Source of the DNA: Eledone cirrhosa
Lineage: Eukaryota
Length of the DNA stretch: 64,000 nucleotides
Assembly (NCBI GenBank): GCA_964016885.1
Contig: OZ024740.1
Coordinates: forward strand, 78,492,001 to 78,556,000
Reading direction: 5' to 3'
Made by a program: the position numbers and the translations under genes. Under the pieces are notes generated by a model. The model had not been told where the DNA came from and did no database searches. It saw only the letters and a list, made by a program, of their open reading frames with translations. Shown in pieces: positions 4,226 through 59,002 of the stretch. The first letter of the stretch is position 1, and every line of letters begins with the position of its first letter.

Positions 4226-4354
4226 ATTGTTGCATCCAAATGATCTGGAAGATGGTTCAAGTTGAATTTCACAAAAATGCATAAAAAAGAAAATAATTAT
4301 AAAAAAGAAAATCTAATTTTACTTTTATACTCTTCTTATTTTCTCTCCATGATA

Positions 4355-13079: not shown

Positions 13080-14763
13080 ATGGCGGGAAAGATGGCAGAC
13101 ATGGCTGCCATTAACTCTGCCACGCCCCCCAAGTCTGAAGAACAAAAAATGGATACAACAAAACTAGACAACGAAACAAACAAGGAAAATGAAAAAACAA
13201 ATGTTACGGAAAATGAGCAAACGGAAAACAAACAAACAGAAAATAAGAATACAAAAAACAACAAGGCAACTTTCGCCCAGACAACAAAAAATCTATAATA
13301 TATACACCTATTGACTTGACTGCCGCCAGAGAAAAACTGGCAGAAGCAAAAAAGCACATAGTCTTGGGGGAGAACGGAATGTTTTCCATTAATCCCCCCC
13401 CCCCCCCCATAATTTAAGAAAACGAGACTAGAAAACACTGTTCTGTTTAGAACAATTCTAAACCACACGAGAAAGCCAGCACAGCCCAGCCAAATGGAGA
13501 TAGAGTTGGTCCTAAAAGACTATATGAAGAATATTCTCTTCATACGAAAGGACCGACTCTATGGCAGCATTTCTGTTTTAACAAAAGACAAGGAAACTGC
13601 ACAGAGGCTTTCCCTAAGCCCACTCTCATCAACAGCATACAGTTTCTATCCCTCCTACATGGGTAGAACTCAGAGAGTCAAAATACAGACAATGCTGCCC
13701 ACAATGGACTTCTGGTGGGCTATTGCTGGCTTCATAGACATGGGCGAGGACACAGTGCTGTCAATGGGGAAGGCATCTGGAGATGCGTTCCTGGGAATGG
13801 GCGTCGACCTACTAGTCCAAATGAGGCCCGAAAGAATAGCGCAAATCCCGGATCGCATCTGGCTGGATGACCTCACCCCAATATATATAATTGTAGAGGG
13901 GAGAAGACCAGCATGCTATTCATGCATGGAAAGGGGACACGTTAAGGCTAACTGCCCGAATCGTATCCCCCAAAAAGGACTATTGCCCACACCCACCACA
14001 AACAGTACACCAACACCACCCACCTCCAAAAATACACTAATACCACATACAGCAAACAAAATACAGACACCACCAACCACAAGCACAACACAAACATCAC
14101 CACCACCAGCACCAAACACAAGCACGACACAAAAATCACCACCACCATCACCATCACCAACCACAACACAAACATCACCACCACCATCACCAACCACAAG
14201 CACGACACAAACATCACCACCACCACCACAAAACACATTCCAAACTAATAATAAAAAAAAACAGCAACAAATCTACCCCTCCCGCAAAAAAATAACAACC
14301 AGACACCACGTCCCTCCCACCTAGCGCTGAAGAGTTTCCCCCAACTTCTGAAGAAGAAGGAGGAGAAGCCTTCAGACAAGTTAAAAGAAAAAAACGAAAG
14401 CACACACCCAGCACACCACAACAACAAATAACTCACACACAAACACCAACTCCAATCAAAAACACCCCACCCTCGACGAACAAAAATAAATCTGCGCCTC
14501 CCCTCTTCGAAACATTGACAGCATCACAAAAAAAGACTTTGCAATACACATATATAAATAAAGAAAACAAAAAACTGTTTAAATTAATAAACAATAACCC
14601 TTTGGTGCAGACCGAAGGGCCAAACTTTATCTCAACAGAGAACTTCACCCATTTAAAAATGATAAAGGTCCCTCTGGACCTTTATCGTTCCTTAAAAGAA
14701 CAATTTAAAACCGTTAAATCGCGTCCTCTTGAAAGATTTCCCCATAACCTCCCCTCTCCCTGA
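13080..14763 (+). pseudogene. Tx1 ORF1 (gag-like, CCHC knuckle), frameshifted
   Basis: VEGRRPACYSCMERGHVKANCP knuckle and T/P-rich linker; homologous to the ORF1 at 32000-33718; frame breaks near A and C homopolymers. Confidence 0.8.
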
Positions 14764-14916
14764 CACAACTCCAAATACCTCAACCCCACCACACTCGGAT
14801 ACCCCCACACCACCACAAAACATCCCTCCACCCAACACACCCGACCCCATGGAAATTACACAACCCGGAGAGGTAGGTGCTTTTCTTTCTTCACTTTCAA
14901 CACCAAAATAGATCAA

Positions 14917-17806
14917 TTGAGAGTTGGCTGTTTGAATGCGCGTGGCCTGGGCTCAGCTTGGAAGCAAGCAAAGCTTCTAAGTGACCTCAGGTCACGAAGT
15001 ATAGATGTGATGGCTGTTTGCGAGAGTCGGATCAGCAGCGTGCGACAGCTGGCTCCCGCCTTCGATGACTTTGAGATGCACGCATCTCTCTGTCAACCCG
15101 GAGGCGGGGGTGGGGTTGCCGTACTGCTGGATAAACGTCTGGCTCTCGACGTACAGATTGTTCACTCGGACCCGGGGGGTCGATTACTGGTGCTGGACGT
15201 CGGAGGCGGTGAAGGCGGGGCTTTCAGACTGGTCGGTCTTTATGCCCCCTTCGGGGCTGAAAGAGCCGACTTCTTCCAGCGTATGGAGACTTTTCTAGGA
15301 ACGTCGCGTTCCCTGCTTTTAGTGGGGGACTGGAATGGAATCCTAGATGCGCGTTGGGACTATGCAGGGGCATGTCCCGATAGAGGGTGGTGTAGCAGCC
15401 TCAAGGGGTTACTCCATCGATTCGACCTGGTCGATAGATTTCGACTAGATTTTCCAACTGTGCCAACCTGGACCTGGGCAAACCGCAGTGGTCAATCTAG
15501 ATCGTACCTAGATAGGTTTTTGGTTAGGATTAAGGATAGGGACGTATTTAGTTGTCCAGAATTGCTCATGGTTGGCTATTCAGATCACAAAATAGTGACC
15601 TGCGTGGTCAACCTTGATAGAACGCATAGACAGGGTCCCGGTTACTGGAAGATGAACTTGTCCTTGCCGGCAAAGGAAGCTTACAGGAACCGGATTAGTA
15701 GCTTAGTTAAGATGCGGTTAACGGGAGCGATCGTCAACAGCAGGTGGTGGGTATCTCTAAAGAAAGAGATTAGAGTAAGTTCGATAGGTTACAGTAAGGA
15801 ACTAGCGGCAAATAGAAATAGGAGGGAAAGGGAGTTAACAGATAAACTAGAAGAGGTGATTAGGAGCGGAGACGTGACCAGAGTGTTAGCGGCGAGAACG
15901 GCGTTGAGCCAGTTCTTTGACGCGAAGCACGAAGGCTGCGTTGTCCGAAGTAAAATACGTGCTTTAGGAAACGAGGGGACCAAAGCTGTTAGCTGGGCCC
16001 GCGTGACAGAAGCCAAGAGTGGGATTAAATCCACCATTCGGTCTTTGCAAGACCAGGATGGACGGGTGATCCTTGAACCTGAGCGGATGTGCGAGGCCTT
16101 TCAAAGGCACTTTGCTCGACTGTTCGGAGGGGGCGGAGGGCCGGACGGGGAAGTGGACTTCGGTCCAACCTCGACGGTCTACCGCGTCTTTCGAGCGGCG
16201 AAGCGGAGTGCTGCGAAAGGCCAATCACAGCCACTGAAATCGGGGAAGCGCTCAGCCAATGCAGCAGACGCAAATCTCCGGGTCTCGATGGTCTACCATA
16301 CGAACTTTATTTAGCTATGCCGGTCTTGTTCTCCGAACTCCTCGAGGCTGTCTATTACAACTGGCAACAGAACGGGAGAATTCCCTGTTCTGTGACCAAG
16401 GGCGTAGTCACGCTAGTGAGGAAGGACGAGAGCAAGGGGGACGACTTAATTAACTTTAGGACCATAACTCTGCTGAATGCAGAGTTACAGATTTTGGCCA
16501 AGGTGTTGGCGAAGAGGTTGGCGCTTGTGGTGGGTGGTTTGGTGGGAGACGCGCAGACATGCACTATCCCGTCCAGGTCCATTCACGACAACCTCCACCT
16601 CATGCGATACATCGTAGAGAGGGTTGGGAACGAACCCGGCTTTGGTAGGGCCCTGATCAACTTGGATCAATCTAAGGCGTTCGATAGGGTCGACCATGGT
16701 TACCTGGATGCGGTGCTAGCGGCGGCGGGCTTCGGACCCGTTTTCAGGGGCTGGATTTCTGCCATGCACAGTGGCAACATCTACTCTAGGATTAAAGTAA
16801 ACGACTACCTCTCGGAGCCGTTTCAAATCACCCGGTCCATCAGACAGGGGTGCCCCCTCTCCTCCCTTCTGTACGTATTGACTCTCGAGCCACTGCTGCG
16901 GAAGTTGGAGTTGCTGCGGGGCATGCCCCTGGAACCGGGATTGCACAAAGCGGTCTCGGCCTATGCCGACGACGTAACAGTAATGGTGGCGGACGCCTCG
17001 GAAATCGGGGCGATCGCCACCCTACTGGAGGAATACGAAAGGCTGACGGGGGCTAGGCTGAACCGGGACAAGTCAGTCGGTTTGCAACTCGGAACGTGGA
17101 GGGGCAAACCGATGCCGTTAGACGGTGTCGTCGGGCGGTGGACGGAGGGCCCGGTGAAGCTGCTCGGGATCTGGTTCGGACCGGACCTCCAGGTGGAGAA
17201 GAATTGGGGCGAGGTGACGAGCAGGGTGTTTGCGCTGACCAAGAAGTGGGCCAAGTGCAAACTATCACTGAAAGGTCGGGCGGAGGTGACGAACGCTTAC
17301 ATAGCGTCCGTCATCTACTACCGCCTGACCGTCGTGCCTTGCCCCAAGGAAACGCTCACCATCATGGAGCGCATGCTCTTCCAGTTCCTCTGGAAGAAGC
17401 GGCCTCCCATGGTGAGGAGATCCATCTGCTGCCAGCACCCTTCGAAAGGAGGGCTGGGTATACCGTGGCTGTTGATGCGTAGGCACGCATTGAGGCTACG
17501 GCATCTACAGGTATTCCTCACCGGTCAGCCGGTGTGGGCCCCGTTTGTGAGGCGAGCCTTCCCACAGCTCGTCTCGCTCACCGAGCTGCAATGATGAAAG
17601 AGGTTGTGTGGTGGACGCGCCTGAAAAGTCTGAGGTCGGGTGACTTTCTCTCCGGCCAACACCTGGTTTACTTCTTCCGATACCACTTCGGAAGAAGGAT
17701 CAGGATGGAGAGAGAAGTGCTTGGCCCCAGACAGTTTTATGAAAGGTGGGTGAAAGAAGCGAGAATGGCTCGTGTAAATGGGCCTTCTCTCTATATTGTT
17801 CTGTAG
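14917..17806 (+). pseudogene. Tx1 ORF2 (APE endonuclease plus reverse transcriptase), with a frameshift near 16160 and an internal deletion near 17592
   Basis: CLNARGL, VGDWNG, SYLDRF, SDH (APE); SPGLDG, DQSKAFDRV, RQGCPLS, AYADD (RT). Confidence 0.92.
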
Positions 17807-19211: not shown

Positions 19212-19312
19212 GATGATGGCTGCCCCCTCGTTATCGAGTATGGCCATTGCACGAGGAGAAAAAATAATTAATAAATAAATAAAACATAAAAAAAAGAAAT
19301 ATATATATATAT

Positions 19313-19382
<70 letters not shown>

Positions 19383-19614
19383 ATACACATATACACACAC
19401 ATATACACACACATACACACACATACATTAATAACAATAATAATAATAATAATAATAATAACAACAATAATAATAATGACAACAACAATAATAATATACA
19501 TATACATATATACACATACACGCACACACATAAACATATCTATACACACACACACACACACACGATAGCAACTAACAGCGCTGCGATCGAATGTGGGTTT
19601 TTAGCCCAGCCAAT
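19212..19614 (-). mobile_element. 3' fragment of the RTE family at 35069-39467, inserted in (CATA)n
   Basis: Matches ...LAGLKxHIRSQxC*, the microsatellite-rich 3' UTR and the tggccatactcgataacgagggggcagccatc terminus. Confidence 0.9.
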
Positions 19615-19659: not shown

Positions 19660-20330
19660 CATTAAAAGCTACAGCAATGTGGAAGACATACATGTACATA
19701 ATATGAAAGAGTACTGGTGGAATGTTCCAGTAAAAACCCCAATAAAATGCAGGCATAACAGACCAGATATTATGATATGGGACAGGGAAAAGAAGTCATA
19801 CACAGTAGTGAAAGTTAGCTGTCCAGCAGATGCCAATAAATATTAAAGAATAGCGAAAAGGAGAATATTTATGCAGAACTGATGAGAAATCTGCAGATAC
19901 TCCACCCTGATTACACCTTCAGATTTATACCTGTGGTTATTGGGGCCTGGGGTATGTTAGTAACTGCCTCAATACAAATCTTGAGAAACTGGGCTTCACA
20001 GGAACAGAAAGAACACGACTGGTTAGGAAATTACAAGTCCAATCCATTAATGGAACAGAAAAAATATGTAAAACATTCCAAAATTTCTGCATCTAATAAC
20101 TGTATATATACTTGTACAGATACAAAGTATATACACATGCACACATACAACTCAAAACATCCACATCTACAGATTCAATAACATCCATATCTACACATAC
20201 ATGCATGCAGACATGCAGACATATCTACCAAGTTGATGTGTAAATTCCAATGAGAGAGTCTTGTATCTATGTTAGAAACCGACTATCTCTCTATTGGCAA
20301 AAATTTGTGAAATCATAAAACCAGAAGAAC
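19660..20330 (+). mobile_element. 3' fragment of an R4/Dong-type RLE retrotransposon in (ACAT)n
   Basis: Highly similar to 52144-52790; encodes HNRPDIMIWD...LMRNLQILHPDY. Confidence 0.88.
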
Positions 20331-20376
20331 ATACATACATACTGTATGTATGTATGTATGTATGTATGTATGTATG

Positions 20377-20965
20377 GTGCTACTAGTAACATGTATCCCA
20401 GTACAACCTGTCTCATGGTCGGGTCGTTGGCGACTAAACTGGCAACCCCACCAAGGTTTCTTGGTGAGGAGGGTGACTTTGGACATCCTGCAGGACTAAA
20501 AACAAAACCTGTCAAAGGGCAAAGGAGCTCTTAAGAGTCAATGGCCATCAAAAATCACCGGGAGAGATGACCCCTTAGCCTTTGTCAAGGCAGAATTCTA
20601 GGAGAAGGAAAACTCTGATATAACACCTGCAACTCTGATGGTATCCAATGATGTTGACTTGTTTTTCTTTTTGGTAAATAACATCTTGGTTAAGAGAGTG
20701 GGACTGGTTTTGTGCAGTGCCTTTGCTCACTATAAAAGCTTCACGGCACAGGCATTGCTTTATATCTGGATCTCTCTGCACTTGTCATCACATGGTACCA
20801 TGGGCCCAGCACTATGTGTCAATAATTGTCACAAGTGTAGTGTTTGTACCAGAGTTATCAAGTCGCTGGCTGGACTAAAAGTCACACTCGTTCAGCGCAT
20901 CGGTAGGGGTTCTCCTACATGGATATAAAGAAGTGGCCGTACTCGAAAGCGAGTTGGCAGCCACC
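20377..20965 (+). mobile_element. Non-autonomous bipartite RTE derivative (5' UTR joined to last zinc finger and 3' terminus) in (ATGT)n
   Basis: 20565-20758 resembles 35130-35342 (ttctaggagaagg, actc.gatataa, agagagtggga.tggtt, gcacaggcattgc); CSVCTRVIKSLAGLK; terminus tggccgtactcgaaagcgagttggcagcca. Confidence 0.75.
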
Positions 20966-21353
20966 ATGTATGTATGTATGTGGATGTTCAGCTAGCTAGT
21001 TAAAAAGACGACCGAGAGTTGTCGCGCTCCCCTAGCTTAATAGTCTAGAGCGCCTAGTCGGTATCTGGGAGATATGAGGTTCTACCCTTCCAAACTGCTT
21101 TTCACATCTTCACTGTATTTTATAAGCTATTTTATAGCATCTCTGAGCTTTGGCCCCCAAACAACGAACATTACTTACCACTTAAGTTTTTATACCAAGT
21201 GTTTCTTGATGTATTGTCTGGTACTTGGAACATAACTTAACAAAGATTCGTATTATATTTAGAAGTAACCAAACTAATTACAAACCAGTATCCAACGTGT
21301 CTATGAAACAAAAATATTATCCAGGGTGATAAAAAATGGACAATTTCTAGTAA

Positions 21354-22260
21354 CTAGAGAGACACCAGGTATAGTGATGGGTGCTCAACCAACTTTCTAG
21401 AGAGAGACCAGGTCTAGTGATGGGTGCTCAACCAACTTACTAGAGAGAGACCAGGTCTAGTGATGGGTGCTCAACCGACTTACTAGAGAGAGACCAGGTC
21501 TAGTGATGGGTGCTCAACCAACTTACTAGAGAGAGACCAGGTCTAGTGATGGGTGCTCAACCGACTTACTAGAGAGAGACCAGGTCTAGTGATGGGTGCT
21601 CAACCGACTTACTAGAGAGAGACCTGGCCTAGTGATGGGTGCTCAACCGACTTACTAGAGAGACACCAGGTATAGTGATGGGTGCTCAACCAACTTTCTA
21701 GAGAGAGACCAGGTCTAGTGATGGGTGCTCAACCAACTTACTAGAGAGAGACCAGGTCTAGTGATGGGTGCTCAACCGACTTACTAGAGAGAGACCAGGT
21801 CTAGTGATGGGTGCTCAACCAACTTACTAGAGAGAGACCAGGTCTAGTGATGGGTGCTCAACCGACTTACTAGAGAGAGACCAGGTATAGTGATGGGTGC
21901 TCAACCAACTTTCTAGAGAGAGACCAGGTCTAGTGATGGGTGCTCAACCAACTTACTAGAAAGAGACCAGGTCTAGTGATGGGTGCTCAACCGACTTACT
22001 AGAGAGAGACCAGGTCTAGTGATGGGTGCTCAACCAACTTACTAGAGAGAGACCAGGTCTAGTGATGGGTGCTCAACCGACTTACTAGAGAGAGACCAGG
22101 TCTAGTGATGGGTGCTCAACCAACTTACTAGAGAGAGACCAGGTCGAGTGATGGGTGCTCAACCAACTTTCTAGAGAGAGACCAGGTCTAGTGATGGGTG
22201 CTCAACCGACTTACTAGAGAGAGACCAGGTCTAGTGATGGGTGCTCAACCAACTTACTAG
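21354..22260. repeat. 43-bp minisatellite, about 21 copies
   Basis: ctagagagagaccaggtctagtgatgggtgctcaaccaactta head-to-tail with no spacers. Confidence 0.95.
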
Positions 22261-22294: not shown

Positions 22295-23323
22295 ATGTGG
22301 TGTGTGTGGTCTGTGGTGTGATGTGTGTGTGGTGTGTGGTGTGTGTGGTGTGTGGTGTGTGGTGTGTGGTGTGGTGTGGTGTGTGGTGTGTGGTGTGTGG
22401 TGTGTGGTGTGTGTGTGGTGTGTGGTGTGTGGGGTGTGTGGGGTGTGGTGTGTGGTGTGCGGTGTGTGGTGTGTGGTGTGCGGTGTGTGTGTGTGTGGTC
22501 TGTGGTGTGTGTGGTGTGTGGTGTGTGTGGTGTGTGTGGTGTGTGGTGTGGTGTGGTGTGTGGTGTGTGGTGTGTGGTGTAGTGTGGTGTGTGGTGTGTG
22601 GTGTGTGGTGTGGTGTGTGGTGTGTGGTGTGCGGTGTGTGGTGTGTGCGGTGTGGTGTGAGGTGTGTGCTGTGTGGTGTGTGGTGTGTATGGTGTGTGGT
22701 GTGTGGTGTGTGGTGTGTGTGTGGTGTGTGGTGTGTGTGGTGTTTGTGTGGTGTGTGGTGTGTGGTGGTGTGTGTGTGTGGTGTGTGTGGGGTGTGTGGT
22801 GTGTGTGGTGTGTGGTGTGTGGTGTGTGTGGTGTGTGTGGTGTGTGTGTGTGTGGTGTGTGGTGTGTGTGGTATGTGTGGTGTGTGGTGTGTGTGGTGTG
22901 TGTGATGTGTGGTGTGTGTGTGGTGTGTGGTGTGTGTGGTGTGGGTGGCATGTGGTGTGTGTGTGGTGTGTGGTGTGTGTGTGGTGTGTGGTGTGTGTGT
23001 GGTGTGTGGTGTGTGTGTGGTGTGTGGTGTGTGGTGTGTGTGGTGTGTGTGTGGTGTGTGTTTGGTGTGTGGTGTGTGGTGTGTGGTGTGTGTGTGTGGT
23101 GTGTGTGGTGTGTGGTGTGTGGTGTGTGGTGTGTGTGTGTGGTGTGTGTGGTGTGTAAGGTGTGTGGTGTGTGGTGTGTGGTGTGTGGTGTGTGGTGTGT
23201 GGTGTGTGGTGTGTGTGGTGTGTGGTGTGTGTGTGGTGTGTGGTGTGTGTGTGGTGTGTGGTGTGTGTGTGTGGTGTGTGCGGTGTGTGGTGTGTGTGTG
23301 GTGTGTGGTGTGTGTGTGGCGTG

Positions 23324-23354
<31 letters not shown>

Positions 23355-25750
23355 GTGTGTGGTGTGTGGTGTGTGCGGTGTGTGGTGTTTGTGTGGTGTG
23401 TGTGTGGTGTGTGGTGTGTGTGTGGTGTGTGGTGTGTGTGTGTGGTGTGTGTGGTGTGTTGTGTTTGGTGTGTGTGTGGTGTGTGTGGCATGTGGTGTGT
23501 GTGTGGTGTGTGGTGTGTGTGTGGTGTGTGGTGTGTGTGTGGTGTATGGTGTGTGGTGTGTGTGGTGTGGTATGCATGTGGTGTGTGTGTGGTGTGTGGT
23601 GTGTGTGTGGTGTGTGGTGTGTGTGTGGTGTGTGGTGTGTGTGTGGTGTGTGGTGTGTGGTGTGTGTGGTGTGGGTGGCATGTGGTGTGTGTGTGGTGTG
23701 TGGTGTGTGTGTGGTGTGTGGTGTGTGTGTGGTGTGTGGTGTGTGTGTGGTGTGTGGTGTGTGTGTGGTGTGAGGTGTGTGTGTGGTGTGTGGTGTGTGG
23801 TGTGTGTGGTGTGGGTGGCATGTGATGTGTGTGTGGTGTGTGGTGTGTGTGTGGTGTGTGGTGTGTGTGTGGTGTGTGGTGTGTGTGTGGTGTGTGGTGT
23901 GTGTGTGGTGTGAGGTGTGTGTGTGGTGTGTGGTGTGTTAGTGTGGTGTGTGTGGTGTGTGGTGTGTGTGGTGTGTGTGGCATGTGGTGTGTGTGTGGTG
24001 TGTGGAGTGTGTGTGGTGTGTGGTGTGTTTGTGTGGTGTGTGTGGTGTGTGGTGTGTGTGGCGTGTGGTGTGTGTGTGGTGTGTGATGTGTGGTGTGTGT
24101 GTGGTGTGTGGTGTGTGTGTGTGGTGTGTGTGTGTGGTGTGTGTGTGTGGTGTGTGTGGTGTGGTGTGTGTGGTGTGTGTGGCATGTGGTGTGTGTGGTG
24201 TGTGTGTGGTGTGTATATGTGGGCGGTTTGTGAGTGATGTCTCTGCTGTGTGTGTGGTGTATGGTGTGTGTGGTGTGTGTGGTGTGTGTGTGGTGTGTGG
24301 TGTGTGTGGTGTGTGTGGTGTATGTGTGGTGTCTATATGTGGGCGGTGTCTGTGTGCGGTGTGTGTGTGGTGTGTCGTGTGTCTATATCTGTGTGGTGTG
24401 TGTATATGTGTGCGGTGTGTGTGTGCGGTGTGTGATGTGTGTATGTGTGTGGTGTGTGTATATGTGGGTGGTGTGTGTATATATGTGTGGTGTGTGTATA
24501 TGTGGGCGGTGTGTGTATATATGAGTGGTGTGTGTATATGTGTGTGTGTGGTGTGTCTGTATGTGTGCGGTGTGTGGTGTGTGTGTATATGTGCGGTGTG
24601 TGTTGTGTGTATATCTGTGTGGTGTGTGTGTGTGTGTGTGGTGTGTGTGTGTATGTGTGTGGTGTGTGTGTGTATATGTGTGTGGTGTGTATATATATGC
24701 ATGTGGTGTGTGTATATGTATGTGGTGTGTGTATATGTATGTCGTGTGTGTATATGTGTACGGTGTGTGTATATGTATACGGTATGTGTATATGTGTGGT
24801 GTGTGTATATGTATGTTGTGTGTGTATATGTATGTGGTGTGTGTATATGTATGTCGTGTGTGAATATGTATGTCGTGTGTGTATATGTGTACGGTGTGTG
24901 TATATGTATGTGGTGTGTGTATATGTGTACGGTATGTGTATATGTATGTGGTGTGTGTATATGTGTATGGTGTGTGTATATGTATACGGTATGTGTATAT
25001 GTATGTGGTGTGTGTATATGTATGTCGTGTGTGTATATGTGTACGGTGTGTGTATATGTATGTGGTGTGTGTATATGTATGGCGTGTGTGTATATGTGTA
25101 CGGTGTGTGTATATGTGTGTGGTGTGTATATATATGCATGTGGTGTGTGTATATGTATGTGGTGTGTGTATATGTATGTGGTGTGTGTATATGTATGTGG
25201 TGTGTGTATATGTATGTGGTGTGTGTATATGTGTATGGTGTGTGTATATGTGTGTGGTGTGTATATATATGCATGTGGTGTGTGTATATGTATGTGGTGT
25301 GTGTATATGTATGTGGTGTGTGTATATGTATGTGGTGTGTGTATATGTATGTGGTGTGTGTATATGTGTATGGTGTGTGTATATGTATGTGATGTGTGTA
25401 TATGTATGTGGTGTGTGTATGTGTACGGTGTGTGTATATGTATGAGGTGTGTGTGTATGTGTATGGTGTGTGTATATGTATGTGGTGTGTGTATATGTGT
25501 ATGGTGTGTGTATATGTATACGGTATGTGTATATGTATGTGGTGTGTGTATATGTGTATGGTGTGTGTATATGTATACGGTGTGTGTATATGTGTGTGGT
25601 GTGTGTATATGTGTATGGTGTGTGTATATGTATACGGTATGTGTATATGTGTGTAGTTTGTGTATATGTATACGGTATGTGTATATGTGTATGGTGTGCA
25701 TATGTGTATGGTGTGTGTATCTGTATACGGTGTGTATATATATGTGTGTA
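22295..25750. repeat. 3.4-kb complex (TG)nG array grading into a 19/21-bp GT/AT minisatellite
   Basis: tgtgg/tgtgtgg units to about 24200, then gtggtgtgtgtatatgtat-type units. Confidence 0.92.
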
Positions 25751-34644: not shown

Positions 34645-35029
34645 TAATGTATGTATGTATGTATTTACGTATGTATGTATGCCTGTATGTATGTATGTAT
34701 GTATGCCTGTATGTATGTATGTATGTATGTATGTATGTATGTATGTATGTATGTATGCCTGTATGTATGTATGTATGTTTTTACGTATGTATGTATGTAT
34801 GTATGTATGTATGTATGTATGTATGTATGTATGTTTGTATGCATGTATGTATGCCTGTATGTATGCCTGTATGTATGTATGTGTTTACGTATGTATGTAT
34901 GCCTGTATGTATGCCTGTATGTATGCCTGTATGTATGTATGTGTTTACGTATGTATGTATGCCTGTATGTATGCCTGTATGTATGCCTGTATGTATGTAT
35001 GTGTTTACGTATGTATGTATGCCTGTATG

Positions 35030-35035
<6 letters not shown>
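34645..35035. repeat. Complex (ATGT)n array with ATGCCTGT and TTTACGT variants
   Basis: Seen directly; the variant pattern continues at 39468 after the RTE insertion. Confidence 0.9.
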
Positions 35036-35068
<33 letters not shown>

Positions 35069-35070
<2 letters not shown>

Positions 35071-35369
35071 GCGGGGACATAGAAATAATCGGGCTGGATG
35101 CCCGATCGCGCAGTTAAACCACTGGGAGTGAAGAACCCCTAGCCCATGTCAGGGTATTCTTCTAGGAGAAGGCATCTCAGGAAACTGGGTTAACTCCGAT
35201 ATAAAACCTGCGGCTCAGTAGTTACCGATGATGTTGATCTTTTCTTCTTTTCGGGTTATAGCTACTGTCGCTCAGAGAGTGGGATTGGTTCAGTGCACAG
35301 TCTTTCCTCACTTTAAAAATATTCGTCACGCACAGGCATTGCACGAGTGCATTAATAATTATTAGTAGT

Positions 35370-35406
<37 letters not shown>

Positions 35407-35411
35407 TATTA

Positions 35412-35444
<33 letters not shown>

Positions 35445-38400
35445 CCCAATTCAATGATGTTCCAGAACAATGTAAACGAGATAATTGCCAATTTGGGTTC
35501 TGGAACAAAAAAGATCATTGGCAATAAGGGCAGGGGCCCCAAGTTATCACAACCTGGGCCCGCCCGTCATCGTGCCATTGTAATAGAGCCAAACAGGGCA
35601 TTTAGTCTTGGCTGCTGGAACGTACGGACGCTGCTTGACAGGGATTCTTTGGAGCGTCCTGAACGAAGGACCGCTCTTGTTGCGAAGGAGCTTCGACGTT
35701 ACGATCTTGACATCGTGGCTTTGTCTGAGACGAGGTTAGCTGGAGATGGTCATCTTACGGAATTTTGTGGAGAATATACATTCTTCTGGAAAGGAAGAGA
35801 TGAAGGAACCAGAAGAGAGGCTGGGGTAGGATTTGCTGTTAAGACTGTACTGGTGAATAAATTAGAAGAATTCCCAGTGGGGATTAGTGAGCGTCTTATG
35901 TCCATGAGAGTTCCGCTGGACAAGGGAAGATATGCTACCCTGGTGAGTGTGTATGCTCCAACTATGAATTCTGTCGATGAAGAAAAACTGTCCTTTTACC
36001 ATGCCTTGAAAGGTGTTTTAAGAAATATCCCTCAGGCAGACAAAGTCATCGTGCTTGGTGACTTTAATGCTAGAGTGGGTAGGGATTTTAACACATGGAA
36101 TGTAATCGGAAGGCATGGGGTGGGAAAGTGTAACAGCAATGGTATGCTCTTGCTGCAGATGTGTGAGGAGCTGGATCTGTGTGTTACCAACACCATGTTC
36201 CAACAAAAGAACAAATTCAAGACCACATGGATGCATCCTGCATCTAAGGAATGGCATCTTTTGGACTACGTCCTAGTCAGGATGCGTGACAGACAGGATG
36301 TGCGGTGTGTTCGTGTTCTTCGTGGAGCTGAGTGCTGGACGGACCACCGCCTGGTACGCGCAAAAGTGAATCTAATCACCAAACGTAAAATCCGGGCTCC
36401 TGGTGTTACCCTGCCCAAAAGATTGAATGCTGCTCGTCTTAAGGATAAAAATGTGAAGAGGACATTGGAAGAAGAGATGCAGGCTGCAGATCTTGGTGAG
36501 GATTGGCCGACCCTTAAAAAGTCGGTTTATGATGTAGGCAGACGTGTTCTGGGATTGGTGCAGAGAAAACATCAGGACTGGTTTAATGAGAAAGATGTGC
36601 ATATAGATGACTTGTTGGCTGATAAGAGGCGCGCTCTGTCACGCTACTTGACGGCAAGACCACAGGAGAGGAATACGTTGCATGAGGAGCTCAGGGATGT
36701 AAAATCACGTGTTAGGCGGAGTCTTTCTCAGATGAAGGATCAGTGGTGGAGTGAGAAGGCTGGTGAGATACAAACTGCGTCTGATTGCAATAACACAAAG
36801 CTGTTGTACAGTCTCTTGCGTGAGGTTTATGGACCGTCTTCTTCTCTGGTGACACCGATTCGCAGCAGGGATGGCAAAGAACTTCTTCGTGACTCACAGG
36901 GAATTCTACGAAGGTGGCGAGAGCACTTTGATGATCTTTTGAATCAGCCGTCTGTCGTCAGTGAAGATTTCCTCAATCTCATTCCGGAAAGTCCTGTGAA
37001 AGTAGCTCTCGCAGAGCCTCCGACACTTGTGGAGGTTGCAGTGGCTATTTCGAAGCTGAACAGTGGAAGATCTCCAGGTATGGATGGCATACATGCTGAG
37101 CTCCTACAATATGGTGGTGAGAGACTCCTGCAACATCTTCACTCTCTGTTTGGAAGGATATGGGCTAATGAATCCGTGCCTGAGGACTGGAGAGATGCAG
37201 TAATGGTGGTCTTGTACAAGGGAAAGGGTAACAGGAATGATTGTGGGAACTACAGAGGTATATCATTGCTTTCTGTCGTGGGGAAAGTTTTATGTAGGGT
37301 GCTTCTGGACCGTCTGCTGACACACATTGCAGATTGTGTCCTTCCTGAAAGTCAATCTGGTTTTCGTGTTGGACGCGGCACTACTGATATGATCTTCTCA
37401 GCTAGACAGCTCCAGGAGAAGTGCATTGAACAGGGCTTGGATCTGTATCAGGTTTTTGTCGATCTGACAAAGGCTTTCGATACTGTCAACAGAGATGCAT
37501 TATGGAAGGTTCTCCAGAAACTTGGTTGCCCCGATAAGTTCCTTGCTTTAGTTAGGTCTTTCCATGACGACATGAAGGCTTGGGTTAATGTCGGAGGTAA
37601 CATGTCGGAGCCTATCTCAGTAAAAAATGGAGTGAAACAGGGGGATATTCCAGCACCGACCCTGTTTGCCATATACTTTGCAATGGTTTTCTGTATTGCA
37701 TTCAGGAATTGCGAGCATGGTGTTTACATCCGATATCGAACCTCAGGCAGCATATTTAACACCAGGCGCTTTGCTGCGAAGACAAAAGTATTTACATCAG
37801 TCATAAGAGACCTCTTGTATGCAGATGATTGCGATCTTGTAGCGCACACAGAGAGTGATATGCAGCACATTTTGAATGTATTTTCTGACGCTTGCACTGC
37901 CCTGGGTTTGACTGTCAGTCTCAAGAAAACCGTCGTCATGTACCAACCTGCACCTGGTAGGCAGTACACTGAACCAAACATCTATGTGTATGGCAAACGA
38001 CTTGGAGTGGTTGATCAGTTTGTCTACCTGGGAAGCACTGTCAATCGATACGGCAACCTTGACAGTGAAATCTCACTTAGGATTAGGAAAGCAAGTGATG
38101 CTTTCGGAAAGCTAGAAAGGCGACTCTGGGGTCGGCGAGACATATGCAGGAGGACAAAGGTAAAGGTGTACAGGGCATGTGTACTCTCTTGTCTTCTTTA
38201 TGCCTGCGAGACCTGGGTCACATATCGACGCCACCTTAAGCAATTGGAGCGTTTCCATCAGATGTGTCTCAGACGGATACATGGCGTTCACTGGGGGGAC
38301 CACATCAGTGATGTCGAGATTTTGGAAAGCTCTATGTGTGACAGTATAGAAGCTCTTGTGCTTAAGCAGCGACTCCGTTGGAGTGGTCACCTTGCCAGGA

Positions 38401-39007
38401 TGAAGGATTCTAGAATACCAAAACAACTCTTCTATGGAGAGTTGGTTAAAGGAAAACGACCGCCACATAAACCAAAAAAGAGGTATAAGGATTCCTTGAA
38501 GGCCTCTCTGAAAGACGCTAACATCTCTGCTGATACATGGGAAAATATTGCTGCTGATCGTAATAAATGGAGAAAGACTGTATATGAGGGAAAAGTTGCC
38601 TTTGAGGCATCTCGAATCGCACACGAGAAAGTAAAGCGGGACGTGAGGAAGGGTATTGCTGTTGCACTTCCAGACGGCGAGGGTCCTCCTATGTTTCTGA
38701 CATGCAGCGTCTGTGCGAGACTCTGCCTAAGCAAAGCTGGACTCGAAAGTCATCTTCGCAGTCATAAAGTAAGACCAGTGGTTGACTACCAGGCTGCTGT
38801 TGGAGATGCTACTCATCATGCTTGCCAAACATGTGGTAGAGAATGTAAATCAGCAGGAGGACTCAAGCGACATGCAAAAGTACACGAACTCCAACCACAG
38901 CCGACTATTCCCAGTAAATGTTTTGGTTGCCGACTCTGTGCAAGACATTTTGGATCATTGGCTGGGCTAAAAAGCCACATTCGATCGCAGCACTGTTAGT
39001 TGCTATC

Positions 39008-39049
<42 letters not shown>

Positions 39050-39128
39050 GCTTATGTGCGTGCGTGTGTGTGTATATATATATGAATATGTATATTATTA
39101 TTGTTGTTGTCGTTATTATTATTATTGC

Positions 39129-39177
<49 letters not shown>

Positions 39178-39348
39178 GTTATTAATGTATGTGTGTATAT
39201 ATGTGTGAGTGTATGTGTATGTATGTGTGTGTGTATATATGTATGTATGTGTATGTATGTGTGTGTGTATATGTATGTGTATGTATATGTATATGTATAT
39301 ATATGTGTGTATGTATATATATATATATATCTTTTTTTTTTTTTTATT

Positions 39349-39405
<57 letters not shown>

Positions 39406-39467
39406 TTTTTTTTTTTTTTTTTTTTTATTGTGCAATGGCCATACTCGATAACGAGGGGGCAGCCATC
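35069..39467 (+). mobile_element. Intact RTE-clade LINE with 9-bp TSD (atgtatgcc) and 5' poly(T)
   Basis: TSD at 35027-35035 and 39468-39476; T33 at 35036-35068; single long ORF. Confidence 0.92.
35454..38999 (+). CDS. RTE polyprotein: APE endonuclease, reverse transcriptase and three C-terminal C2H2 zinc fingers (1181 aa)
   Basis: WNVRTL, LSETRL, GDFNARVG, TDHRLV; DLTKAFD, GVKQG, LYADD; CSVC..HLRSH, CQTC..HAKVH, CRLC..HIRSQH; no stops. Confidence 0.95.
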   Translation: MMFQNNVNEIIANLGSGTKKIIGNKGRGPKLSQPGPARHRAIVIEPNRAFSLGCWNVRTLLDRDSLERPERRTALVAKELRRYDLDIVALSETRLAGDGHLTEFCGEYTFFWKGRDEGTRREAGVGFAVKTVLVNKLEEFPVGISERLMSMRVPLDKGRYATLVSVYAPTMNSVDEEKLSFYHALKGVLRNIPQADKVIVLGDFNARVGRDFNTWNVIGRHGVGKCNSNGMLLLQMCEELDLCVTNTMFQQKNKFKTTWMHPASKEWHLLDYVLVRMRDRQDVRCVRVLRGAECWTDHRLVRAKVNLITKRKIRAPGVTLPKRLNAARLKDKNVKRTLEEEMQAADLGEDWPTLKKSVYDVGRRVLGLVQRKHQDWFNEKDVHIDDLLADKRRALSRYLTARPQERNTLHEELRDVKSRVRRSLSQMKDQWWSEKAGEIQTASDCNNTKLLYSLLREVYGPSSSLVTPIRSRDGKELLRDSQGILRRWREHFDDLLNQPSVVSEDFLNLIPESPVKVALAEPPTLVEVAVAISKLNSGRSPGMDGIHAELLQYGGERLLQHLHSLFGRIWANESVPEDWRDAVMVVLYKGKGNRNDCGNYRGISLLSVVGKVLCRVLLDRLLTHIADCVLPESQSGFRVGRGTTDMIFSARQLQEKCIEQGLDLYQVFVDLTKAFDTVNRDALWKVLQKLGCPDKFLALVRSFHDDMKAWVNVGGNMSEPISVKNGVKQGDIPAPTLFAIYFAMVFCIAFRNCEHGVYIRYRTSGSIFNTRRFAAKTKVFTSVIRDLLYADDCDLVAHTESDMQHILNVFSDACTALGLTVSLKKTVVMYQPAPGRQYTEPNIYVYGKRLGVVDQFVYLGSTVNRYGNLDSEISLRIRKASDAFGKLERRLWGRRDICRRTKVKVYRACVLSCLLYACETWVTYRRHLKQLERFHQMCLRRIHGVHWGDHISDVEILESSMCDSIEALVLKQRLRWSGHLARMKDSRIPKQLFYGELVKGKRPPHKPKKRYKDSLKASLKDANISADTWENIAADRNKWRKTVYEGKVAFEASRIAHEKVKRDVRKGIAVALPDGEGPPMFLTCSVCARLCLSKAGLESHLRSHKVRPVVDYQAAVGDATHHACQTCGRECKSAGGLKRHAKVHELQPQPTIPSKCFGCRLCARHFGSLAGLKSHIRSQHC

Positions 39468-39499
39468 ATGTATGCCTGTATGTATGTATGTATATATGT

Positions 39500-46491: not shown

Positions 46492-49400
46492 TTTCTTTAT
46501 TAACCACAAGGGTTTACATAAAGTAGACATTAAGGACAGTACAGGACAATACAGGGCGGTACAAATGGGCATTTCTGCGTGTAAAAAAAACAAGAAACAG
46601 AGGATGTAATAATAGAACAATGAAAAAAATTCCCCAATAGGGGGGAGACTTCCGAGGGACATTGGTGGAGAAAGCCCATTAAAAAGCCACAGTGACCCTG
46701 ACCACCAGGGCAAGTGCCCTCTCCCAGTTTTCCACCTTTAATTTACAGACACATACTCAGAGTAGGCCCATTCACTCGAGCCATACTTGCTTCTATCACC
46801 CATCTTTCAACAAAATGCTGGGAAGAGAGCACTTCCCTTTCTACCCTGATTTTCCTTTTCAAATGAAATTTGAAAAAGTTAATCAGGGCATCACCGAAGA
46901 GGTAAGTGCTCGTCTTCAGCCCTTTCAAACGTGTCCACCATACTATCTCTTTCGCCATGGCCACCAGACAGATAAAAACTGCTTGCCCTTCCCGGCTAAA
47001 GGAAGAGGGCGGGGCAATCCTCACGATGGACTCAGCTGATAGCTGGATCCGTCCCACACGCGACAGCAGGTGTTCTACATAAACCCACAAGTCAGCAATG
47101 CTCGGACACTGGACGAGTGCGTGCAGGACGGTTTCGTCGCCCTGCGCGCATCTCGGACATGCCCGGCTGACGGCACCTCCATGCCTGTAGAGTTTATCCC
47201 GAACTGGCAAAGCTCCTCGGTAGCACTGCCAGGCCAGGGATTTCTGGAAGTTGTCCATAGGCCCCGGCCCGAAAGTTCTTTCGAAGAGATTGGCTAGTTG
47301 ATTTTCGTCGACGCCTTGAGTTTCCCCAAGTACGTCGTCGCTCTTCCCCTCCACTAATCCTCTATAGAACACCAAGGCGGAGTTTCCACCGATCACATTG
47401 CCCGATTGGTCGAGGGCTGTGAGCGCCTGAAAACATTCCAGTCTCCAAGCGCTCCCTCTCGATCTTCGCTTGACCCAGGACTGCAACTCCGTCAAGGAGA
47501 CGAGCTGGAGAAAGACGTGTCTAGCAAACGGAGACCACACCTGATCACCGTCGAGGAAGAGGTGGAGATGTCGTAGCCTGAGCACGTGTCTGCGCATCAT
47601 CAGCCACGGCATTCCCAGCCCTCCACGTAGCGGGTGTTGACAGCAGATGGACCGCCTGACCATCGGAGCGCGTCCCTTCCACAAAAAGCGAAAGAGCAAA
47701 CGCTCCAGCGCAGTCAGGCGGGGCTTAGGACAAGGTACGACGGTCAGGCGGTAGTAGATGACGGACGCGATGTACGCGTTAGCCACCTCCGCTCGACCTT
47801 TCAGGGATAGCTTCCTCTCGGCCCATTTCTGGGTGAGAGAAGCCACCCTGCTCGTCACCTCGTCCCAGTTTTTGTCCGTCTGGAGGTCTGGACCGAACCA
47901 GACCCCGAGCAATTTAACTGGTCCGTCCGTCCAGCGCCCGACGACGTTGTTGGACGGCATGGACCTGCCTCTCCAGGTGCCGAGCTGCAGGCCCACTGAC
48001 TTTTCCTGGTTGATCATTGCTCCTGTCACCGCTTCGTATTCTCTTAGTGTAGTGCCGATCGCCTCGATGTGTTTGGCGTTCGACACCACTACGGTGACAT
48101 CGTCCGCATATGCTGACACGGATCTTCCGCATCCAGGTTCGCGCGGTACCCTCCTCAACGTCTCCAGTTCGTGCACTAATGGCTCGAGAGTCAATACGTA
48201 CAATAGGGACGAGAGGGGACATCCTTGGCGGACCGAGCGCATGATGTTGAACGGTTCCGAAAGGTGACCGTTCACTCTCACCACAGAGGAGATGTCGCTG
48301 TGCATGGCAGCGATCCAGCCTCTGAAGACGGGCCCAAAGCCAGCCGCCCTCAGGACTGCCGCTAGGTAACGATGGTCGACCCTATCGAAAGCTTTCGACT
48401 GATCTAAATTGATCAAGGACCCACCCGTGCCAGGTTCCCTAGCTACCCTCTCTACGATGTATCGCATGAGGTGGAGGTTGTCGTGGATAGATCTGTCGGG
48501 AACGGCGCATGTCTGCGCCTCTCCCACCAGACCACCAACGACAAGCGCCAACCTCTTTGCTAGCACCTTCGCCAAAATCTCGAACTCTGTGTTTAGCAGA
48601 GTTATGGGCCTAAAATTATCTATGTTATCCCCCGTGTTCGGATCCTTTCTCAGCAGCGCCACAGTTCCTCGGCTCACAGAGCTGGGAATTCTCCCGTTCT
48701 GTTGCCAGTTGCAGTAGACGTCCGCCAAGAGGCCTCCGAACAAGTCTGGCATCTGTACGTAAAGTTCATAGGGCAGACCATCCAAACCAGGCGATTTACC
48801 CCTTGTGCAGCTAGTCATTGCCTCCCGTACTTCAGCGGCTGTTATCGGCTTTTCGCAACACTCCGCCTCAGTGGCCGAGAGCCGCGGCAGTCCGTCGAGG
48901 TAGACACTAAAGTCCATCCCTCGATCCGGCCCGCCGCTTCCCCCGAACAACTGAGCGAAGTGTCGCTGAAAAGCTTCACACATTTGCCCGGGATCGAGTA
49001 GCATGCGCTCGTCGTGGTCCACCAAAGACCGGATCGTGGCTTTGTTGCCACGATGCGCCTCCGCCACTCGGGCCCATTGGACGGCTTTCGTCCCCTCGTG
49101 TCTGAGAGCACGCACCCTAGCTCTGACAACGCAGCCTTCGTGCTTTGCATTGAAGAATTTGTCAAGGGCCAATTTCGCCGCAAGTACGTCGGTCGCGATG
49201 CCTTTGCTAAGCGCCTCGTCTAATTTTCTAACTAATTCTCCCTCTGCTCTATTTTTCTCTATTGCTAAAGCCTTACTAAACCTAATGGACTCTATTCTAA
49301 TTGCTCTTTTCAGAAACCACCACTTGTTGACGATGGCCCCCGTCAACGCCTGCTTAACTAGTTCGCTAATCCGGTCTCTGTAGGCCTTGCGCGCTGGTAA

Positions 49401-49840
49401 GGACGCATTTAGCTTCCAGTAGCCGGGTCCTCGTCTATGAAGCCTATCTAAGTCAAGTACACAGATCACGAATTTGTGCTCCGTGTAGCTGACTATCTTG
49501 AATTGTGGACAGCCTATGCTAGACCTATCTATTTCTCTACAAAATACTCTATCTATATATGATCTGGATGACCCTATGCGATTTGTCCAAGTCCACATTG
49601 GCACATTCGGGAAATCCAATCGGTACCTGTCAGACAGTTCAAAACGCCTGAGCAGGTTGGTCAGGCTCTTGCACCCTCCTCCCCTATCCGCTAATCCCAC
49701 ACAGTCCCAGCGTGCATCTAAGATCCCGTTCCAGTCGCCCACTAACACTAAAGAGCGCGACGCTCCAAGAAAGGTCTCCAAAAGCCGGAAGAAATCAGGC
49801 CCCCCTGCTCCTGTCGGGGCATAGACGGCCACTAGCCGAT
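46492..49840 (-). mobile_element. 5'-truncated Tx1-type LINE flanked by (AAT)n on both sides
   Basis: 3' end gtggttaataaagaaatc then (att)n; aat array at 49863-49890. Confidence 0.9.
46743..49832 (-). CDS. Tx1 ORF2, uninterrupted but missing the N-terminal ~100 aa of APE (APE-RT-CCHC)
   Basis: VGDWNG, SYIDR, DQSKAFDRV, RQGCPLS, AYADD, CPRCAQGDETVLHALVQC. Confidence 0.9.
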   Translation of the reverse strand: MAVYAPTGAGGPDFFRLLETFLGASRSLVLVGDWNGILDARWDCVGLADRGGGCKSLTNLLRRFELSDRYRLDFPNVPMWTWTNRIGSSRSYIDRVFCREIDRSSIGCPQFKIVSYTEHKFVICVLDLDRLHRRGPGYWKLNASLPARKAYRDRISELVKQALTGAIVNKWWFLKRAIRIESIRFSKALAIEKNRAEGELVRKLDEALSKGIATDVLAAKLALDKFFNAKHEGCVVRARVRALRHEGTKAVQWARVAEAHRGNKATIRSLVDHDERMLLDPGQMCEAFQRHFAQLFGGSGGPDRGMDFSVYLDGLPRLSATEAECCEKPITAAEVREAMTSCTRGKSPGLDGLPYELYVQMPDLFGGLLADVYCNWQQNGRIPSSVSRGTVALLRKDPNTGDNIDNFRPITLLNTEFEILAKVLAKRLALVVGGLVGEAQTCAVPDRSIHDNLHLMRYIVERVAREPGTGGSLINLDQSKAFDRVDHRYLAAVLRAAGFGPVFRGWIAAMHSDISSVVRVNGHLSEPFNIMRSVRQGCPLSSLLYVLTLEPLVHELETLRRVPREPGCGRSVSAYADDVTVVVSNAKHIEAIGTTLREYEAVTGAMINQEKSVGLQLGTWRGRSMPSNNVVGRWTDGPVKLLGVWFGPDLQTDKNWDEVTSRVASLTQKWAERKLSLKGRAEVANAYIASVIYYRLTVVPCPKPRLTALERLLFRFLWKGRAPMVRRSICCQHPLRGGLGMPWLMMRRHVLRLRHLHLFLDGDQVWSPFARHVFLQLVSLTELQSWVKRRSRGSAWRLECFQALTALDQSGNVIGGNSALVFYRGLVEGKSDDVLGETQGVDENQLANLFERTFGPGPMDNFQKSLAWQCYRGALPVRDKLYRHGGAVSRACPRCAQGDETVLHALVQCPSIADLWVYVEHLLSRVGRIQLSAESIVRIAPPSSFSREGQAVFICLVAMAKEIVWWTRLKGLKTSTYLFGDALINFFKFHLKRKIRVEREVLSSQHFVERWVIEASMARVNGPTLSMCL

Positions 49841-53892: not shown

Positions 53893-54204
53893 GTATGTAT
53901 GTATGTATGTATGTATGTATGTATGTATGTATGTATGTATGTATGTATGTATGTATGTATGTATGTATGTATGTATGTATGTATGTATGTATGTATGTAT
54001 GTATGTATGTATGTATGTATGTATGTATGTATGTATGTATGTATGTATGTATGTATGTATGTATGTATGTATGTATGTATGTATGTATGTATGTATGTAT
54101 GTATGTATGTATGTATGTATGTATGTATGTATGTATGTATGTATGTATGTATGTATGTATGTATGTATGTATGTATGTATGTATGTATGTATGTATGTAT
54201 GTAT
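53893..54204. repeat. Pure (ATGT)n microsatellite, about 310 bp
   Basis: Seen directly. Confidence 0.95.
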
Positions 54205-54344
54205 GTGTGCGTGTGTGTGTGTGTGTATACGAGGTATGTCAAAAAAGAAACAGGACTGGGGGTCGCAAAAAGAAAACTTCCATTTGTGTGTGTATATATA
54301 TATATATATACATATCTCTCTCTCTATCTATCTCTCCCTATATA

Positions 54345-57662: not shown

Positions 57663-58683
57663 TTTCTTTATTAGCCACAGGGGCACAAAAGAAGGGGACA
57701 AATACAAAGAGGGAAGTTTACATACAATAAAAACGTGTAAAATACTATCACAAATGCAATTTAAAAATTAATCGATTTTCCCCAATTGGGGGAGACATTT
57801 CATATGGGTAACAAATACCCCCGAAAAAAATGTGCAACCCTCACCTCCAGGAGTACGAAGAGTTTGTACCTCTTTCCTCTCTTCCTCTTTTTCCTCAACC
57901 TACAGGCTGATATAGAGAGAAGGCCCATTCACTCGGGCCATTCTCGCCACTTTCACCCACCTATCATAAAACTTGCTGGGGTACAGCACCTCTCTCTCTA
58001 TCCTGATTCTTCTTCCAAAGTGGTATTTGAAAAAAAGATCAGTTGTTGGCCGGAGATAAAGGTGTCTGACCTCAGCCCTTTTAACCACGTCCACCATACA
58101 ACCTCTTTCGCCATAGCTATCACACAGAGGAAAACCACCTCTCCTTCGTTTTTGAAGGAGGGAGGCGGTTTGATCATGACAATGGACTCGGTGGTCAACC
58201 GAATTGGTCCCACCCGCGACAATAGTCGTTCTACATAGCCCCACAAGTCGGTAACACCCTGGCAGTGTATGAATGCGTGCACGACGGTTTCTTTGTCTCG
58301 TACGCATCTCGGACAGATCTTTTTGGAAGGGTCCCTGCCCAGGCGTCCATGTCTGTAGAGCTTGTCTCGAACTGGTAGAGCTCCTCGGTAGCACAGCCAG
58401 GCCAGGAACTTTTGGAAGTTGTCCATCGGTCCTGGGCTGAAGGTCCTACCGAACAGACTGGCCAGTTCGTCTTCCTCTACGCCTAGAGTTTCTCCGAGCG
58501 CGCCGTCGCACTTGCTGCGGATCAACCCTCTATAGAATGACGAAGTGGAGTCTCCACTGATCGCCGGGTCCGCCTGCCAGAGGGCTGTGAGCACCTGAGC
58601 ACATTCGATGTGCCAGTCGCCCATTTACTCGGTCTTTGCTTGACCCAGGACTGCAGCTCGGTCAGCGAGACGAGTCGTGGGAA
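57663..58683 (-). mobile_element. 5'-truncated Tx1 copy (stack member 1)
   Basis: LVSLTELQSWVK...CPRCVRDKETVVHAFIHC; 3' end gtggctaataaagaaa then tatct repeats. Confidence 0.9.
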
Positions 58684-58713
58684 GATAGATAGATAAATAA
58701 ATAGATAGATATA

Positions 58714-58967
58714 TTTTTTTATTTGCCACAAGGTCGCACAAGAAAAGGGGACAATACAGGACAAATGCCGGAGATTTTACATACAATCGTGTAAAAAATA
58801 CATTTTCAACAAACAAATTTAACAATCGAAATCCCCAATAGTGGGGAGGCGTTACAAATGGGTTGTTTAATACCCCGTAGATAGAACAACCTCCAACTGC
58901 AGGAGCATGTTGTGCAAGTGCTCCTTTCTTCCTTTTGCTCTCTTCTTCAACCTACAGGTTTGTATAC
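58714..58967 (-). mobile_element. Tx1 3' UTR-only copy (stack member 2)
   Basis: aacctgtaggttgaagaag...ctattggggatttc...gtggcaaataaaaaaa, between GATA tracts. Confidence 0.85.
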
Positions 58968-59002
58968 AGACAGACAAATAAATAGATAGATAGATAGATA
59001 TC

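Follow-up and report, generated by a model that had tools for sequence, protein, structure and literature searches.

A probable (ATGT)n-seeking branch of RTE retrotransposons with a triple C2H2 finger tail in Eledone cirrhosa

The 64,000-nucleotide stretch of the Eledone cirrhosa genome analyzed here (contig OZ024740.1, positions 78,492,001 to 78,556,000 of the forward strand; hereafter the window, to which all coordinates refer) contains an RTE-type retrotransposon, the main copy, seated within an array of the tetranucleotide ATGT. The element spans 35036-39467 and is bounded by two copies of ATGTATGCC on the plus strand, at 35027-35035 and 39468-39476, which form its target-site duplication (TSD). 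One open reading frame (ORF; 35454-38999, plus strand, 1181 amino acids (aa)), uninterrupted by stop codons, encodes an N-terminal apurinic/apyrimidinic-type (APE) endonuclease domain (35616-36356; aa 55-301; motifs WNVRT, SETR, GDFNA and TDH) followed by a reverse transcriptase (RT) domain (37236-38039; aa 595-862; QGD at 729 and YADD at 789), and Pfam recognizes both (Exo_endo_phos, E 1.4e-11; RVT_1, E 1.6e-30). The protein has no RNase H, and no ORF1 lies between the 5' junction and this ORF. Its C-terminus carries three fingers of the pattern CxxC-x12-H-x3/4-H at aa 1084-1104, 1124-1144 and 1159-1180, encoded on the plus strand at 38703-38765 (helix SKAGLESH), 38823-38885 (SAGGLKRH) and 38928-38993 (SLAGLKSH). 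The Pfam zf-C2H2 matches in this ORF fall under the curated cut-offs. In an AlphaFold2 model built from a 22-row alignment, each segment of the tail folds as a separate finger unit (predicted local distance difference test score 84) and the fingers take no fixed mutual geometry (predicted template-modeling score 0.34). Taken together, Pfam, AlphaFold2 and the structure searches identify the tail as having the Cys2His2 (C2H2) fold, while Foldseek, a PDB sequence search and the ESM Atlas returned nothing for the fingers beyond generic C2H2 matches. The ORF list, the Pfam matches and the motifs thus bear out a preliminary description of this DNA, which had reported an uninterrupted 1181-aa APE-RT ORF ending in three C2H2 fingers with the helices given above. 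The closest named match to the element is an Octopus bimaculoides fragment with 70% identity.

A run of 33 T residues (T33; 35036-35068, plus strand) marks the 5' junction, as had been described. It is followed by the remaining 5' untranslated region (UTR; 35069-35453, plus strand), a block with an internal (ATT)n and T29 that is common to a second element in the window (copy 3, below) and to L008, a relative from outside the window. In these two, homologous 5' UTR extends further upstream, by about 130 nt in copy 3 and 270 nt in L008. Because their 5' UTRs reach beyond the shared block, T33 is the likely truncation point, and the main copy probably lacks these 130-270 nt, such that its ORF is intact but the element is probably not full length. 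The T33 run itself may be an internal T tract of the main-copy family or an untemplated addition. The earlier label of an intact RTE consequently holds for the ORF and probably not for the element as a whole; the suggestion that the element is potentially active is favored by the intact ORF and by the high share of its words in sequencing runs, but not by the truncated look of its 5' UTR. Downstream of the ORF, the 3' UTR (39000-39467, plus strand) consists mainly of (GT)n, (TAT)n and T runs.

The 3' UTR closes with a stem-loop (39435-39467, plus strand) that ends in ATC and shows compensatory changes across the lineage. In an alignment of 12 sequences, from which the tested structure was itself read off, 90.5% of cells are paired, five of eight pairs show two-sided change, and none of 500 shuffles reaches the observed covariation score. 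Single-sequence folding gives z values of 0.01 for the main copy, -0.43 for copy 2 (another element in the window) and -2.83 for copy 3; since those of the main copy and copy 2 are unremarkable, support for the hairpin rests on covariation. In four relatives (L001, L003, L004 and L012) the ORF runs into the conserved hairpin, and the proteins end in MALV or MALI.

The sequence surrounding the main copy speaks to the relative age of array and insertion. The 5' flank (34647-35035, plus strand) is an (ATGT)n array with interspersed ATGCC variants and a higher-order repeat of ~60 bp, and the remainder of the array follows the 3' TSD to about 39501. The TSD is 9 bp long, or 10 bp if the next T is counted, and it includes the variant. 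On the plus strand of the window, the upstream array contains ATGTATGCC 13 times, and its only other occurrence is at 39468; a single reverse-complement copy lies within the ORF. The 3' flank also carries on the ATGCC-TGTATGT variant pattern of the array. Because the TSD bears the variant and the 3' flank continues the pattern, the array, as read from these sequences, is older than the insertion, and the element's RNA would have contributed at most one ATGT unit. The 9-mer counts and the 3' flank pattern therefore confirm the earlier proposal of an array that predates the insertion. The one defined TSD opens with an A after a T (a T|A step); of the Tn-TA signature, the T|A step is thus present, whereas the T stretch expected about 10 nt upstream is absent within the array (n = 1 TSD). 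The short tandem 3' end (ATC/ATGT), the 9-10 bp TSD and the occurrence of 5'-truncated copies are all RTE-like traits. Elsewhere in the window, a 336-bp near-pure (ATGT)n array at 53893-54228 has no element at its edges and represents an empty potential target.

Two further copies lie in the window. Copy 2 (19212-19614, minus strand) is a 5'-truncated member of the main-copy family, identical to the main copy at 52 of 54 and 38 of 39 positions in its unique parts, with one extra ATC at its 3' end, (ATGT)12 upstream and (ATGT)13 downstream. Copy 3 (20375-20965, plus strand; (ATGT)8 upstream, (ATGT)4 downstream) is a bipartite non-autonomous element composed of 5' UTR, a finger-3 remnant (SLAGLK) and the 3' stem-loop, and its 5' UTR is 69% identical to that of the main copy. 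Where the preliminary description saw two more members of one family in the same repeat, only copy 2 belongs to that family and copy 3 represents a sister family, although both are ATGT-flanked. All three copies in the window therefore have ATGT on both sides, with 5' arrays of 34-390 bp. As background, 1.4% of sites on the plus strand and 0.4% on the minus strand have an ATGT run immediately upstream, and the chance of upstream ATGT at both copies other than the one that led to the discovery is about 6e-5. Ahead of the 5' ATGT flank of copy 3 lies an inverted (ACAT)n (20329-20376), and positions 211-252 of relative L055 carry the inverted array alone; twin priming on an AUGU tail, or else an assembly artefact, could explain these inverted arrays.

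The preference for ATGT extends beyond the window. The preliminary description had named random 5' flanks as the observation that would speak against targeting, and this was examined in four of 24 listed sequencing runs by alignment to copy 3 extended with short ATGT stubs, runs with a small share of matches being left unused. The test covers the sister family and assumes that organism A, from which the reads derive, is conspecific with the window. About 100,000 reads per restriction-site-associated DNA (RAD) run align to copy 3, which indicates that the sister family is very abundant. At the 5' loose ends, represented by 5,372 and 5,757 RAD reads, the consensus ends CATGTATGTATGT, giving (ATGT)3 before the element head, with an agreement of 0.74 over 30 letters and roughly 0.6 in the flank part; other, equally abundant microsatellites do not dominate it. 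This consensus includes a 12-nt element head that copy 3 lacks, and the sister family has at least two 5' head variants. Depth across the upstream ATGT stub averages 63-65% of that in the next bin. In contigs from organism A, all nine joints among the 12 rows listed (of a table with 469 more) connect the stub, in phase, with truncation points inside the element at 20510-20711. Because truncated copies likewise join ATGT in phase, the 5' ATGT is not an element head. Flanks in the reads are thus ATGT-rich, and targeting was not refuted. A drop in depth 7 nt past the 3' junction was rejected as a sign of a short flank, its simplest cause being read length from the AATT site at 20824, and joints that appeared to go back 624 were rejected as tandem copies, as the stub alone matches.

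Sampled words of the main ORF are present at shares of 0.69-0.79 in four organism A runs and 0.28-0.60 in six runs with six other labels, corresponding to about 96-99% identity given full coverage; no RNA run is listed among them. Organism B (run X5) has 0.60 of these words (about 98% identity), and its copy 3 matches are mostly below 95% (1567 of 1847 contigs); this sharing pattern may reflect vertical conservation or horizontal transfer. An Rfam search with copy 3 gave nothing near a gathering score.

More distant relatives carry the same junction. A metagenome scan yielded 44 loci, 11 of which are RTE elements at about 50% identity (L002 and L003 being one family), and all ten RTE relatives that reach their 3' end, from nine families, end in C|ATGT, the number of units ranging from 2 to about 30, and L008 has extra ATC units. 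Five relatives have 850 nt or more of sequence upstream of their endonuclease match, and three of these (L003, L007 and L008) begin in an ATGT array. As a weak control, the other 33 metagenome loci and all eight viral loci are non-RTE, and none of these 41 has ATGT arrays at its contig ends; the viral collection contained no RTE relatives. Microsatellite targeting, proposed earlier from the window, is therefore sustained by both the sister-family reads and relatives that are only ~50% identical.

A protein search with the C-terminal 232 aa of the main ORF returned 67 proteins (68 with the query), of which 39 have three fingers, four have two, 19 have one and six have none. In an RT tree of 78 rows, the 39 triple-finger proteins and nine ATGT-ended loci fall in one clade (Shimodaira-Hasegawa-like support 99) together with three two-finger rows, two one-finger rows and one fingerless row, and a second tree (IQ-TREE, run incomplete) of the 41 of 68 proteins that passed a motif filter recovers the same clade with support 99. 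The trees hold unnamed, Branchiostoma and Spirometra homologs and no named RTE, so that the RTE assignment derives from architecture and known RTE motifs. Members with one or two fingers (P0044 and P0020) do exist within the clade. Outside it, the three single-finger loci with a visible 3' end all lack ATGT (L053 has another end; L060 and L067 have (GT)n). Distant, RTE-like L067 has long (GT)n on both sides (4234-4339 and 7972-8087 of its contig) and L060 ends in (GT)n, possibly marking a second, GT-targeting lineage. These outgroup loci belong to 25 contigs (L053-L077) in bacterial genomes and metagenome-assembled genomes of GTDB that carry eukaryote-type, RTE-like long interspersed nuclear element (LINE) sequence, likely as host contamination; a GTDB scan with the finger alignment gave no matches.

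How would such a lineage find ATGT arrays? We hypothesize, with a rough probability of 0.55, that this is a deep RTE lineage residing in (ATGT)n through nicking at T|A and pairing of the RNA 3' end, with the fingers as an accessory nucleic-acid clamp. Insertion would proceed by target-primed reverse transcription, in which the endonuclease nicks the (ACAT)n strand opposite the T|A step that opens the TSD, the freed primer pairs with AUG or AUGU that the RNA carries at its end as a tail or by read-through, and a second nick 9-10 nt away gives rise to the TSD. Within an ATGT array a T|A step recurs at four-base intervals, and arrays would be favored by pairing with an RNA end that bears AUGU. 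Copy 2 and L008 would owe their additional ATC units to slippage during pairing, and the 3' hairpin may serve as a cis signal that also mobilizes the non-autonomous sister family. The rationale for nicking plus pairing is that it accommodates a C|ATG junction that does not vary, a TSD that starts with A after T, and the additional ATC units, and the available sections of two articles propose a Tn-TA signature and tail-guided priming for RTEs (PMC6007223, PMC13295347). Moreover, families that are only ~50% identical all retain ATGT as their target, so that some constraint on the side of the protein (fingers, endonuclease or RT pocket) is likely to help keep it fixed. The three fingers would act as a clamp rather than as proven base readers.

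Several observations weigh against this reading. Relatives L001 and L004, two of the five with a long 5' end, have no 5' ATGT array; their contigs may end inside a longer UTR, or their flanks may not be ATGT. In L055, which belongs to the clade and lies on a chimeric contig, the flank is an inverted (ACAT)10GT. RAD reads are biased to sites near cut sites, and the joint table is able to show only ATGT-joined truncations and gives no fraction. Loose ends of contigs (28 and 84 contigs; X2) show about one ATGT or TATGT followed by AT-rich unique flanks, at the 3' junction 17% of reads show ATAT, and (AT)n forms some of the 3' flanks. Because of these ATAT junctions, (AT)n flanks and short ATGT stretches before unique flanks, ATGT targeting is a strong preference and not a strict specificity. 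Finally, ATGT use and the fingers go together in the loci seen, no trait of the clade is more conspicuous than its finger triplication, and the endonuclease has only one clade-diagnostic residue (V286), which favors a role for the fingers.

This last group of observations leads to an alternative hypothesis, possible though not favored, in which the three C2H2 fingers read the (ATGT)n duplex directly, one short core per spaced finger, and so position the endonuclease. The grouping of 39 triple-finger proteins and nine ATGT-ended loci in one clade, with no ATGT at the three single-finger outgroup loci, agrees with this view, and the helix residues, near-invariant at ~45% overall identity, fit a fixed ligand. 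Finger 2 has Arg at helix position +6 in 37 of 39 proteins, and the long-linker, small-residue fingers of plant QALGGH proteins can read short cores. Canonical base-reading C2H2 arrays, however, combine short, conserved linkers of the TGEKP type with long side chains at -1, +3 and +6, and the present fingers have neither: Gly occupies +3 in 115 of 117 fingers and Ser or Thr occupies -1 in all 117, while the inter-finger linkers vary from 6 to 27 and from 9 to 19 aa. The helix, a lineage-wide motif, also resembles that of the ancestral single RTE finger (S/A-x-I/F-G-L-x-S-H), and the model shows no defined inter-finger geometry. In addition, the tripling of the finger and the use of ATGT trace back to one shared origin and so count as one event with no independent contrast, in which cause and passenger are not separable. 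Single-finger L067 lies between (GT)n arrays, so that a site in a microsatellite is possible with fewer than three fingers (n = 1). The fuller proposal, that a widespread RTE lineage, so far without a name, became (ATGT)n-specific by triplicating its C-terminal finger into a long-linker tetranucleotide reader and so yielded a compact, single-ORF APE element with aiming housed in a separable module of ~110 aa, is less likely than not.

It is improbable that the endonuclease or the RT active-site region alone sets specificity, as is believed of other microsatellite-specific APE elements such as Waldo and Kibi, while the fingers bind the element's own RNA hairpin. The available text of a review states that sequence-specific cleavage is believed to be the major factor in such elements (PMC3812793), and the RT has several clade-diagnostic residues, two of which adjoin catalytic motifs: the triple-finger clade has QGD and YADDCD (P0001 aa 731 and 794), as opposed to QGC and YADDCA in all 11 aligned outgroup rows. 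The fingers also give weak matches, below curated cut-offs, to zf-met and to jaz, which binds double-stranded RNA. Against this, members of the clade and sequences outside it hardly differ in their endonuclease segments, the WMHP hairpin region included. The very improbable and already largely refuted view that there is no targeting at all, ATGT being an element-made tail and the 5' arrays reflecting large TSDs, insertions in tandem into older tails, persistence in neutral DNA or artefacts of assembly, can appeal to the 3' microsatellites that RTEs generate (PMC2887409, available sections), to a microsatellite-rich genome and to consensus contigs that can mis-join at repeats (L055), but it meets a variant-bearing TSD in a 390-bp older array with no upstream hairpin, 5' arrays of 34-390 bp in the window against a background of about 1%, truncated copies joined to ATGT in contigs with which raw reads agree, and a 5' consensus not dominated by equally abundant microsatellites.

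Apart from the RTE copies, the window contains three broken two-ORF endonuclease-RT elements (13494-17594, plus strand; 46743-49598 and 57998-61071, minus strand), 24-27% identical to the RTE protein, which we take to be L1/Tx1-like. A 43-bp satellite (21 copies, 95% matches) at 21353-22260 adjoins a 3.4-kb TG-rich complex array at 22296-25748.

The element likely represents a previously undescribed microsatellite-seeking RTE branch with a conserved (ATGT)n preference and a triple C2H2 tail. A literature search, which did not extend to Repbase, Dfam or subscription papers, turned up neither an ATGT-targeting nor a triple-finger RTE, and a prior entry is possible. The available portions of PMC12988792, PMC13282606, PMC3124438 and PMC4758252 contain nothing on targeting. 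The lineage makes it possible to test RNA-tail pairing, the endonuclease and an added DNA-binding module as the picker of a microsatellite, as the RNA end, endonuclease and fingers are separately swappable and nature provides members with one, two and three fingers. The lineage may explain part of the clustering of LINEs, as well as of short interspersed nuclear elements, with microsatellites in a repeat-rich octopod genome, and it could supply a compact tool for writing into a target that is multicopy and mostly non-coding.

Among cephalopod elements, the nearest comparison is RTE-2_OV of Octopus vulgaris, which, according to the accessible text of PMC9115989, is likewise an RTE with an intact ORF, a C2H2 finger, UTRs of ~600 nt and a microsatellite-rich 3' UTR, but has 1109 aa and one described finger, and has no target preference stated in that text. 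All five of its published primers that were tried have 3-7 mismatches at best to the main element; because of these mismatches, the main element, judged by its primer sites, is a different family, although the large sequence supplements of that paper, outside this comparison, might hold the main family. Transposon calls (MELT) for an O. bimaculoides RTE (3.2-kb consensus; 18 rows in the available parts 1-2 of 13) include five with a TSD, none in an ATGT array, and were too weak to be used.

Within the RTE clade as represented in the available sections of the sources, RTE-1, BovB and RTE-1_MD share with the main element a single APE-RT ORF, a microsatellite-like 3' end and a TSD that begins with A after T, and RTE-clade LINEs likewise have bipartite non-autonomous derivatives (PMC5786205). 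Those elements are described as dispersed or random integrators with a short split motif, whereas the lineage described here concentrates, throughout a deep clade, in one tetranucleotide array and carries three fingers; RTE-1_MD is listed as a random integrator and one RTE is used as a random gene writer (PMC13708176, available text).

By having the same repeat on both sides, including at 5'-truncated copies, the present elements probably fall within the microsatellite-specific class. Waldo elements of this class belong to the R1 clade and are two-ORF insect elements with a gag-like ORF1, from which the main element differs in its single ORF and its clade. As covered in the accessible main text of PMC3812793, in which RTE is absent, WaldoAg1/2 and WaldoFs1 are APE-type elements without long terminal repeats (non-LTR) that insert into ACAY microsatellites, of which ACAT is the reverse complement of ATGT, and Mino (AC), Kibi (TC), Koshi (TTC) and Dong (TAA) are likewise microsatellite-specific non-LTR elements of other clades with other targets. 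A deep RTE branch fixed on (ATGT)n would thus add a new origin of APE target specificity, convergent with that of Waldo.

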